This document shows, one piece after another, positions 2,363 to 2,648 of a stretch of DNA of 64,000 bases (position 1 is the stretch's first letter; every line of letters begins with the position of its first letter). Source of the DNA: Escherichia phage vB_EcoM_ASO1B; sequence record MZ726792.1; one strand, written 5' to 3'. The position numbers were made by a program, and so were the translations under genes. The notes beneath the pieces are model-generated. The model was not told where the DNA came from. It saw only the letters and a list, made by a program, of their open reading frames with translations, and ran no database searches.

Positions 2363-2527
2363 AACCTTAGTTTTCGTTGCGTAGCGTCTATTTTGCAAAT
2401 TTAAAATAAATGCAAACGACAATGTTTTTCTGGCAGTAGCTTGATAGGCTAAACACCAGTGAGGTCTTCCAATCCCTCATCAAAGAATTTGGCGTACTCG
2501 CCCACGGTATGATTAATAAGGTGGGCA

Positions 2528-2560
2528 TCTTTAAGGGCTTTCTAAGAGAGTCTTTAAAGA
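2528..2560 (+). repeat. recurrent motif M, copy 3 (TTAAGGGCTTTCTAAGAGAGTCTTTAAAGA)
   Basis: Shares AAGGG, TTCTAAGAG and TCTTTAAAG words with copies at 1681 and 5031. Confidence 0.45.
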
Positions 2561-2566
2561 TAATTA

Positions 2567-2648
2567 CGGGGCGTATCTCAGCGGTCTTCTAAACCGCCGT
2601 TAACCGAGTAAGTGGAGTATGCGGGTTCGAGTCCTGCCGCCTCGACCA
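2567..2648 (+). tRNA. non-canonical tRNA-like gene (anticodon-like loop TCT, Arg-like; D-arm apparently absent)
   Basis: Acceptor CGGGGCG/CGCCTCG + A + CCA, T-arm GCGGG-TTCGAGT-CCTGC, perfect hairpin GCGGT-CTTCTAA-ACCGC, only 7 nt where the D-arm should be and 23 nt before the T-arm. Confidence 0.4.

Follow-up and report, generated by a model that had tools for sequence, protein, structure and literature searches.

The window analysed is the whole 64,000-nt stretch of Escherichia phage vB_EcoM_ASO1B (MZ726792.1), to which vB_EcoM_ASO1A (MZ726791.1, Felixounavirus) is 100% identical. ARAGORN detected 25 tRNAs in the window, all on the + strand and all within one array at 993-6144. The subject of this analysis is a further gene of the array, at 2567-2648, which very likely encodes a functional elongator tRNA-Arg(UCU) on a non-cloverleaf scaffold, decoding AGA and probably AGG. 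It is referred to below as the rewired tRNA. Together with two upstream hairpins, it lies in a 570-bp gap between tRNA-Ile(GAT) (2243-2318) and tRNA-Ser(TGA) (2888-2977). In the annotation of MZ726791.1 this gap holds one promoter and is otherwise empty. When the gap was searched by BLAST, unrelated phages were found to share two separate pieces of it. The upstream hairpins belong to a conserved RNA, module (a), that resembles the mRNA-like domain of transfer-messenger RNA (tmRNA), and the promoter stands upstream of both module (a) and the rewired tRNA. Judged from the sequence, transcription would start at this promoter and module (a) and the rewired tRNA would be co-transcribed; no terminator-like site was found after the promoter up to position 3000, that is, none before the next tRNAs. 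Coordinates of all features are collected in Table 1.

Architecture and covariation of the rewired tRNA

A sequence-only reading of the window had described 2567-2648 as a non-canonical tRNA gene with a good acceptor stem, a canonical T arm and an anticodon hairpin GCGGT-CTTCTAA-ACCGC (TCT, Arg), and with no D arm. All of these parts were confirmed at the positions it gave. Only 7 nt (TATCTCA, 2574-2580) separate the acceptor stem from the anticodon stem, and 23 nt (2598-2620) precede the T arm. No local D hairpin (10-13/22-25) is present in the gene; covariation places the partner strand 3′ of the anticodon arm. Neither of these two stretches is unstructured, as the longer one had been described: CTC (2577-2579) pairs with GAG (2606-2608) in 100% of 50 homologues. 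The new helix consists of C2577-G2608, T2578-A2607 and C2579-G2606. At a fourth position A2580 stands opposite C2605, usually unpaired, and A.C was found there in 40 of the 50 sequences. Because this helix encloses the anticodon arm, the molecule has a three-way junction, in which the acceptor stem and the T arm meet an anticodon arm that is extended and has a 7-nt bulge. The bulge, CGTTAAC, probably stands in place of the normal variable loop. A D-loop-like string, UAAGUGGA, comes after the 3′ strand of the long-range helix, in junction J3. By analogy with ordinary tRNAs, 2610-2611 may be equivalent to A14/A15, 2614-2615 to G18/G19, A2616 to A20 and T2620 to U48.

Table 1. Positions of the features in the window, with the loci of the isoleucine sister family.
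Feature	Position	Strand	Comment
Rewired tRNA-Arg(UCU) gene with encoded CCA	2567-2648	+	Family covariance model R1, 98.1 bits; Rfam tRNA, 31.7 bits
Acceptor 5′ strand, CGGGGCG	2567-2573	+	Pairs with CGCCTCG 2638-2644, one G.U
Junction J1, TAT (U8-like, A9-like and one U)	2574-2576	+	Invariant in 50/50 aligned sequences
Long-range D-stem-like helix, 5′ strand CTC(A)	2577-2580	+	Runs straight into the anticodon stem
Anticodon arm GCGGT-CTTCTAA-ACCGC, TCT at 2588-2590	2581-2597	+	5/5 pairs with double-sided changes
7-nt bulge CGTTAAC, 3′ side, anticodon stem to long-range helix	2598-2604	+	C32, T34, A36 and A37 invariant (50 sequences)
Long-range helix, 3′ strand (C)GAG	2605-2608	+	Covariation with CTC(A)
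Junction J3, TAAGTGGAGTAT	2609-2620	+	D-loop-like string
T arm GCGGG-TTCGAGT-CCTGC	2621-2637	+	99.2% paired; 3 pairs with double-sided changes; canonical GTTCRA loop
Acceptor 3′ strand, discriminator A2645, CCA 2646-2648	2638-2648	+	Discriminator A/G in 67/70; CCA encoded in 46/70
Sigma-70-type promoter TTGACA-17-TATAGT	2334-2362	+	11/12 consensus matches; also annotated in MZ726791.1
Module (a), conserved structured phage RNA containing the hairpins first read as a tRNA remnant	2395-2527	+	Resembles the tmRNA mRNA-like domain
Tag-like frame GCA AAC GAC AAT GTT TTT CTG GCA GTA GCT TGA (ANDNVFLAVA*)	2412-2444	+	Second stop TAG 2445-2447
Hairpin Ha, outer stem 2430-2433/2456-2459, inner stem 2437-2440/2448-2451	2430-2459	+	Loop TTGATAG shows both stops
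Hairpin Hb, TGAGG-TCTTCCAATC-CCTCA	2460-2479	+	First read as a T-arm-like hairpin
Near-perfect 16-bp hairpin with G.U pairs	2527-2561	+	Directly 5′ of the rewired tRNA; predicted fold
Isoleucine sister family	IMG/VR loci L292-L410, L067:5506-5585		Metagenome viral contigs

Fifty distinct homologues were aligned over 82 columns (alignment A2). With the four-helix structure 94.7% of the cells were paired, compared with 64.3% in column shuffles (0 of 500 reached the observed value) and 33-46% when the partners were slid. Double-sided changes occurred in 19 of the 21 pairs, including all seven of the acceptor stem, where 99.1% of cells were paired. The three CTC/GAG pairs were formed throughout, with 26 cells changed on both sides. 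Pair 11-42 was seen as CG and UA, pair 12-41 as UA, GC, AU and CG, and pair 13-40 as CG, UA and GC; the strands of the long-range helix occurred in 17 complementary combinations. A scan of viral contigs whose only anchors were the T arm and the end of the 23-nt region gave the covariants CTC/GAG, CGC/GCG, CAC/GTG, CTT/AAG, CAGC/GCTG, CATC/GATG, CGTC/GACG and TCC/GGA. When five unrelated phage groups were aligned, compensatory changes were found in all three stems, and the parts formerly read as unstructured were near-invariant. In 30 distinct sequences GGAGTAT of J3 was invariant, although the search pattern had left it free. The anticodon loop was CTTCTAA in 55 of 70 distinct sequences and CTTCTAC in 8, a 7-nt loop with U33. 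The evidence for a non-chance structure is this covariation, not folding energy.

A mini-hairpin of the form YCG-AGUAAN-YGG within the 23-nt region, taken from the minimum free energy (MFE) fold and showing one-sided changes, was first read as a variable-like or D-like hairpin. It was rejected because it shares bases with the covarying GAG and because variants such as AAAAGCGTAATGG are unable to form it.

A covariance model, R1, was built from A2. It scored the window copy at 98.1 bits and the ordinary tRNAs of the window at 37 bits or less. Across other loci the R1 scores were bimodal, with the family at 83 bits or more and ordinary tRNAs at 45 or less. General detectors responded poorly. ARAGORN, one of the checks proposed in the sequence-only reading, made no tRNA call at 2567-2648. 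The Rfam tRNA model (RF00005) passed it narrowly, with 31.7 bits against a gathering score of 29, and aligned it with the D arm deleted, placing 4 nt where 15 are expected and a 20-nt insertion. A standard cloverleaf in another register, which the sequence-only reading had named as grounds for giving up its claim, was thus not recovered by the covariance model. An ordinary cloverleaf read in the wrong register, or one with an intron or insertion, would fit the length, since 82 nt with CCA falls within the class II tRNA range. It is nevertheless hardly credible, as no D arm is found by the Rfam model, the spacer is only 7 nt, the supposed insertion shows sequence conservation and base-pairs with the 5′ connector, and the other register is supported by no homologue.

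Distribution, amino acid identity and codon demand

A search with the 82-nt gene alone matched 262 GenBank phage records, 251 of which cover at least 80% of the query. The family occurs in Felixounavirus, rV5/phi92-like, Mydovirus, Kuravirus, PBECO4-like jumbo, ~110-kb Klebsiella, Serratia and Vibrio phages, and unrelated phages carry it at 83-90% identity. A separate search added a member from a Streptomyces phage, Yaboi (L095). An anticodon-free pattern was found in 90 IMG/VR viral contigs. The bacterial and archaeal scan, which covered one genome from each of 185,579 species, returned 5 contigs, all of them short contigs from metagenome-assembled genomes. The class is effectively confined to phages, and it is not a host-type tRNA because these 5 were the only bacterial contigs. 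Some of the viral contigs have the rewired gene as their only detectable tRNA, and in the 64-kb window it is the only tRNA with a UCU anticodon. Family members are almost never annotated in their records, now and then appearing as 'tRNA-OTHER', and Rfam 15 holds no separate family for the rewired tRNA or for module (a).

HNH endonuclease genes were noticed in or next to this tRNA gap in the Felixounaviruses JN01, GEP101, heid, I14.1 and vB_CECAV_041. In JN01 an HNH-domain gene (L412:1253-1645) directly follows the rewired tRNA-Arg; the start annotated for this gene overlaps the tRNA's 3′ end. This adjacency suggests that the cassette may have spread in association with homing.

The sequence-only reading had raised the possibility of decaying tRNA genes, the upstream hairpins included. 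A decaying pseudogene with tRNA debris beside it would account for the missing ARAGORN call, the marginal Rfam score, the unexceptional folding energy and the fact that depositors mostly left the gene unannotated. It is extremely improbable. Selection, both purifying and compensatory, acts strongly on the architecture in more than 250 GenBank phages and ~90 IMG/VR contigs; the four helices show extensive compensatory covariation, the junctions are near-invariant across unrelated phage families, and the amino acid that the anticodon stands for is strictly conserved, where decay would bring broken pairs, a drifting anticodon and patchiness. That the alignments are an artefact of one recent transfer is excluded by the 50-70 distinct sequences. 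Covariation is seen in the upstream hairpins too, which are part of a module matching 592 phage records.

The anticodon was examined in 70 distinct sequences from an unconstrained search. It was TCT in 67, CCT in 2 and TCG in 1, and one further member has ACG. C35 was universal, position 36 was always U or G, and the discriminator was A or G in 67 of the 70. Bacterial arginine identity is set by A20, C35, U/G36 and A/G73 (PMC9976931). The window copy has C35 and U36 in its TCT anticodon and A73 at A2645. A2616 stands directly 3′ of GG, as A20 does in the D loop of KhF1, AATTGGATA, a match in sequence order and not in demonstrated spatial position. The J3 consensus of the rewired family, TAATTGGAGTAT, has the string AAUUGGA in common with that loop.

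Scaffolds with a base other than A after UGG were also scanned for, and in all of them this base proved to be U. An architecture filter passed 78 of 111 distinct real matches and 3 of 5,550 controls with shuffled upstream sequence. These members form a sister family with isoleucine anticodons, the typical form of which is acc-TAT-CTC-C-TCAAG-CTTATAC-CTTGT-AGAAA-GAG-TAAYTGGTYACAT-T arm-acc-A. U followed GG in all 72 full-length distinct members (anticodons TAT 63, CAT 5, GAT 4), each of which has A73; U20 and A73 are bacterial isoleucine determinants (PMC9976931). A followed GG in 69 of 69 distinct members with arginine anticodons. The association of A with Arg and U with Ile was perfect over 141 distinct sequences, and in all 141 J1 was TAT or TATC. 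In five isoleucine members (L295, L336, L351, L378 and L380) the bulge (CRTTAANN) and J3 are of the Arg type, except that U replaces A after GG (TAATTGGTGTAT), and the anticodon is TAT instead of TCT. By analogy, the base after GG may correspond to position 20. ARAGORN called 2 of 79 Arg-type members, both in the wrong register, and none of 78 Ile-type members. The rewired tRNAs are thus a phage-specific, previously unannotated class with two isotypes, Arg and Ile, and a new core topology.

Codon usage was determined in 44 long open reading frames of the window, where AGA makes up 40.9% and AGG 9.9% of the Arg codons. AGA is among the rarest codons of E. coli. The only other Arg tRNA of the array, at 3894-3969, has the anticodon ACG and reads CGN (ARAGORN). 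Across the array region used as query (window 900-6200), KhF1 shows 94.1% identity. In exactly the slot of 2567-2648 it carries an ordinary cloverleaf tRNA-Arg(UCU) (L291:331-407), as does Sf14 (L007:547-623). The flanks of ASO1A and KhF1 are near-identical up to the first base of the tRNA and again from its last base. Because the swap is exact and lies between near-identical flanks, the ordinary and the rewired genes are read as alternative cassettes for one function.

A decoy role had also been considered in the sequence-only reading. In its broader form, the gene would be a tRNA mimic, acting as a decoy or antidote for a host nuclease or toxin that targets tRNA-Arg, or as a nuclease-resistant replacement of the cleaved tRNA-Arg. 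Phage tRNAs are known to counter the anticodon nucleases PrrC, PARIS AriB, retron Ec78 PtuAB and Schlafen (PMC13056530), and the rewired family is phage-restricted, is often the only tRNA of its contig, and moves between unrelated phages at the identities given above. A pure decoy, however, would need neither an identity base that switches with the anticodon (A/Arg, U/Ile), nor A/G73, nor four Arg anticodons including ACG, and decoding is indicated by the precise exchange of the gene for an ordinary tRNA-Arg(UCU) and by AGA making up 41% of the Arg codons. The mimic is therefore disfavoured and is kept as an unlikely alternative. A working tRNA is preferred because the perfect coupling of A/U with the anticodon is hard to explain unless these molecules are recognized by the host's arginyl- and isoleucyl-tRNA synthetases (ArgRS and IleRS). 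The variant of a working tRNA that is also resistant fits this explanation and hardly counts as a rival.

Charging with an amino acid other than arginine was weighed as well, for example mis-acylation through the displaced D loop with recoding of AGA. A20 stands in an unusual context, mitochondrial D-armless tRNAs with UCU/GCU anticodons carry serine (PMC7609411), and the 23-nt region after the anticodon arm matches a class II variable arm in length. This region forms no variable-arm hairpin of its own, however, and apart from the context of A20 the full arginine identity set is kept. Recoded AGA would also be lethal, given that an ordinary tRNA-Arg(UCU) is interchangeable with the gene at this slot in near-identical genomes. 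Mis-charging is considered very unlikely.

Proposed mechanism and relation to known tRNAs

The functional tRNA-Arg(UCU) is proposed to work as follows. The CUC/GAG helix, of 3-4 bp, would stack as an extension of the anticodon stem, with the 7-nt bulge on one side. As the 5′ strand of the helix passes into the anticodon stem without a break, the arm would reach approximately the length of a D stem and anticodon stem stack. The GAG strand, running away from the anticodon, would continue into U-A-A-N-U-G-G-A, and the order after GAG would be that of an ordinary tRNA: stem, A14, R15, N16, U17, G18, G19, N20. GUAU would then lead to the T stem, its final U at the place of Y48 and the first U of J1 at the place of U8. 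With J1 and J3 in this order, nucleotides for U8-A14, R15-Y48, G18-psi55, G19-C56 and the position-20 pocket would all be available, and only the connectivity would differ. The J3 strand would supply A14 for U8, A15 for U48, G18/G19 for the T loop, and A20 as the ArgRS identity base. The molecule would fold into an L-like shape, be charged by the host ArgRS and be used by EF-Tu and the ribosome. It would in this way provide the phage with a decoder of AGA, and probably AGG, its commonest Arg codons.

Several points weigh against this interpretation. Expression, processing, aminoacylation and ribosomal use are proposed from sequence comparison, and the assignments of A14, A15, G18, G19, A20 and U48 in J3 from analogy of sequence and a single case of covariation, that with the anticodon. 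The polarity of the long-range helix is opposite to that of a normal D stem, so equivalence of the three-dimensional core is probable and not guaranteed. The junction nucleotides are near-invariant and consequently give no pairwise covariation; several scan patterns fixed parts of the junctions, so that their invariance is partly imposed, and checks with these regions left free were run. For the Levitt pair, the few Ile members in which J3 ends in C keep A at the A15-like site, with no G15, so covariation lends this tertiary pair no support. The MFE z-score of the 82-mer was 0.04 against shuffles, which makes folding energy uninformative either way. An ordinary Arg tRNA with the same anticodon was found nearby at 1 of 79 family loci, but these loci are partial contigs and in some genomes an ordinary tRNA-Arg(UCU) may sit elsewhere.

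The closest functional relative is the ordinary tRNA-Arg(UCU), as in the KhF1/Sf14 cassette and E. coli argU. Both have a 7-bp acceptor stem, a 5-bp anticodon stem, the loop CUUCUAA, a canonical T arm, A/G73 and the AAUUGGA string (in the D loop there, in J3 here), and they have the same genomic slot and presumably the same job. Unlike the ordinary tRNA, the rewired one has no D hairpin: its D-stem-like helix spans the anticodon arm with opposite polarity, its D-loop-like string follows that helix and is not closed by it, and its junction is three-way, not four-way.

Mitochondrial D-armless tRNA-Ser(AGN) is the closest structural analogue, likewise with no D hairpin, three arms and AGN reading. 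For some D-armless tRNAs an extended anticodon helix was reportedly proposed by de Bruijn and Klug in 1983 and by Steinberg et al. in 1994. Mitochondrial D-armless tRNAs are ~60-65 nt long, have lost the elbow, depend on adapted synthetases and EF-Tu, carry serine (PMC7609411) and adopt a Y-shape (PMC11551756). In contrast, the rewired tRNA has 82 nt, a paired connector, a canonical T loop, an invariant UGG-A and the arginine identity set. A synthetic 'mini HisT' lacking the D arm is tolerated by the E. coli synthetase, EF-Tu and ribosome (PMC11551756). Unlike the rewired tRNA it is artificial, was made by deletion of nt 11-25, performs poorly unless PNPase is mutated, and has neither a relocated D loop nor a long-range helix. 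Allo-tRNAs and the 8/4 or 9/3 tRNAs of bacteria and phages (acceptor stem of 8-9 bp, T stem of 4-3 bp) are found partly in phage tRNA clusters, some with AGA/AGG or AUA anticodons (Mukai et al. 2017, PMC5389517). They keep the D arm and a long variable arm, whereas the rewired tRNA is 7/5, has no variable hairpin and is changed in the D region.

In a 2020 review of non-canonical tRNAs (PMC7609411) phages do not appear. According to a 2024 paper all known bacterial tRNAs are cloverleaves, with variation in arm size making up the full cytosolic diversity (PMC11551756). No published description of the rewired family or of module (a) was found in the full-text literature, where coverage is incomplete and an earlier publication is possible. 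If the interpretation holds, the family is a natural exception to the cloverleaf rule in the bacterial cytosol, and a widespread one, present in well-studied coliphages (Felix O1-like, rV5/phi92-like, PBECO4-like, Kuravirus) and in environmental phages. With nearly all Arg-type and every Ile-type member escaping ARAGORN, the tRNA repertoires listed for phages would be systematically incomplete for AGA and AUA, and likewise the arguments from codon usage that rest on them. The family would further allow features of the tRNA core that depend on connectivity to be told apart, in a natural setting, from those that depend only on tertiary contacts, and it would provide a natural identity swap, A20 and C35 (Arg) against U20 and A35 (Ile). 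It would also be a candidate structural escape from tRNA-targeting defences, for which KhF1 and ASO1A are directly comparable, and the scaffold might be useful as an orthogonal or nuclease-resistant tRNA. That the rewiring serves to escape tRNA-directed defence nucleases or RNA decay is an attractive idea, drawn by analogy.

Module (a) and other elements of the array

The two hairpins upstream of the rewired tRNA, TAGC-TTGATAG-GCTA (2437-2451) and TGAGG-TCTTCCAATC-CCTCA (2460-2479), were present as the sequence-only reading had described them. They had been taken for a degenerate tRNA, the first for its anticodon arm, a view that must be given up: both covary and are part of a conserved RNA with a tmRNA-like tag frame. 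The outer stem of Ha was 99.3% paired in 105 distinct sequences, with a GC to AT exchange at 2433/2456, and shifted controls gave 17-44%. In Hb, TGAGG/CCTCA is replaced by CAAGG/CCTTG in cp21 and Pollock and by CAGGG/CCCTG in Sf14; the pair types TA/CG and GC/AT were both seen. The 167-nt segment 2400-2566 folds with z = -3.84. Matches to module (a) at 72-83% identity came from ~46-48-kb siphoviruses (swi2, KpV2811) and from T5-like, Ackermannviridae, N4-like and lambdoid phages.

No in-frame start codon for the tag-like frame was found after the stop at 2382-2384. The motif AN[DE]xxxL[AM][VA]A* occurred as 19 peptide variants in 134 viral-contig occurrences; the stop was conserved and third codon positions were the most variable. 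Homologous tags include ANDDQFLAVA, ANEEMYLAVA, ANDNTFLAVA, ANDDVVLMAA and ANEEVYLAVA. An ATG frame within module (a), MQTTMFFWQ*, was rejected, as it showed radical substitutions and has no Shine-Dalgarno sequence. The tag of E. coli tmRNA (SsrA) is ANDENYALAA, its resume codon is GCA, and its stops lie in a hairpin loop. Module (a) resembles it in having an A-rich leader followed by a GCA resume-like codon, and a 10-codon frame that lacks a start codon, has a hydrophobic-Ala end and stops in a hairpin loop. Unlike tmRNA it lacks a G3.U70-bearing acceptor stem as well as a terminal T arm with CCA. Rfam models of the tmRNA family gave 11-25 bits, against gathering scores of 47 (RF00023, RF04321) and 84 (RF01850), and matched the mRNA-like part only. 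Such sub-threshold matches were obtained in four independent loci.

A tRNA-like domain was sought around module (a). Within 600 nt on either side of the 134 occurrences, ARAGORN found a matching tmRNA in 1, and Rfam found no tRNA-like domain at six loci. A search for a T arm and enclosing stem in the ~300 nt downstream gave a good fold only in the lambdoid/swi2 lineage. There, a domain at L411:4126-4221 (an E. coli prophage; the same sequence in phage swi2, L173) lies ~70 nt after module (a) and folds with z = -3.95. It has a 13-bp stem around a branched region and a T-arm-like hairpin, GCGG-TTCGACT-CCGC. This domain is lineage-specific and has neither G3.U70 nor an encoded CCA. Of 70 testable module (a) occurrences, 48 have a same-strand tRNA within 1.5 kb.

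Prophages and plasmids carry module (a) in 338 of 5,426 E. coli genomes; it is not homologous to host ssrA because it is present in so few of these genomes. One prophage copy lies between the Q antiterminator and holin genes. The 5′ half of the module (query 4-72, including the tag frame) was matched in 533 plasmids, of which 524 are predicted to be non-mobilizable. The plasmids listed are mostly ~110 kb and come from Klebsiella and E. coli (e.g. NZ_CP027045.1 and NZ_CP040026.1); they are presumably phage-plasmids. By sequence, module (a) looks like the coding piece of a tmRNA without the tRNA half. Whether it interferes with, or uses, host trans-translation is a matter of roughly even odds. 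If functional, it would represent a novel type of phage RNA with a bearing on ribosome rescue.

A joint reading of the two elements can be put forward only tentatively. The rewired tRNA would be a topological isomer of tRNA for Arg (AGA/AGG, also CGN) and Ile (AUA/AUH), two class Ia isotypes read via position 20. It would keep the nucleotides of the tertiary contacts (U8, A14, A15, G18, G19, N20, Y48 and the T loop) while its D loop is opened and joined to the opposite strand of the D-stem-like helix. Its advantage would lie in being a poor substrate of host tRNA-directed immunity and decay, yet a good one for ArgRS, IleRS, EF-Tu and the ribosome, and with module (a), whose frame resembles a tmRNA tag, the phage would have a second device, directed at quality control of host translation.

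The hairpin at 2527-2561 is kept in KhF1 and Sf14 and is possibly a processing element, as its predicted fold suggests. A second long near-perfect hairpin lies at ~3136-3232, directly 5′ of the tRNA-Leu at 3232. The motif GGGCTTYCTAAG is common to both hairpins, which may be processing signals. The second hairpin gave a spurious match to a plant miRNA in Rfam.

Three further elements of the array were noted. A tRNA-Trp(CCA)-like gene at 2792-2874 has ~8 extra nt between the acceptor stem (ATGGGAC/GTCCCAT, then G and CCA) and a 3-bp D stem, with the anticodon at 2832-2834. It was not called by ARAGORN, and its top Rfam match was tRNA-Sec at 23 bits. Compared with Sf14, it shows compensatory changes in the D stem (CTC/GAG to CAC/GTG) and in the T stem (G-C to T-A), and it is the sole Trp candidate in the array. 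A partial tRNA-like element at 1826-1886 (Rfam tRNA, 22 bits) has an anticodon-like loop, CCGGTAA, and a good T arm; its acceptor stem is not clear. The ~200 nt at 1887-2083, just before the tRNA-Lys at 2084, are bracketed by a long inverted repeat, ATCTTTGTAGATAAG ... CTTATCTACAAAGAT.

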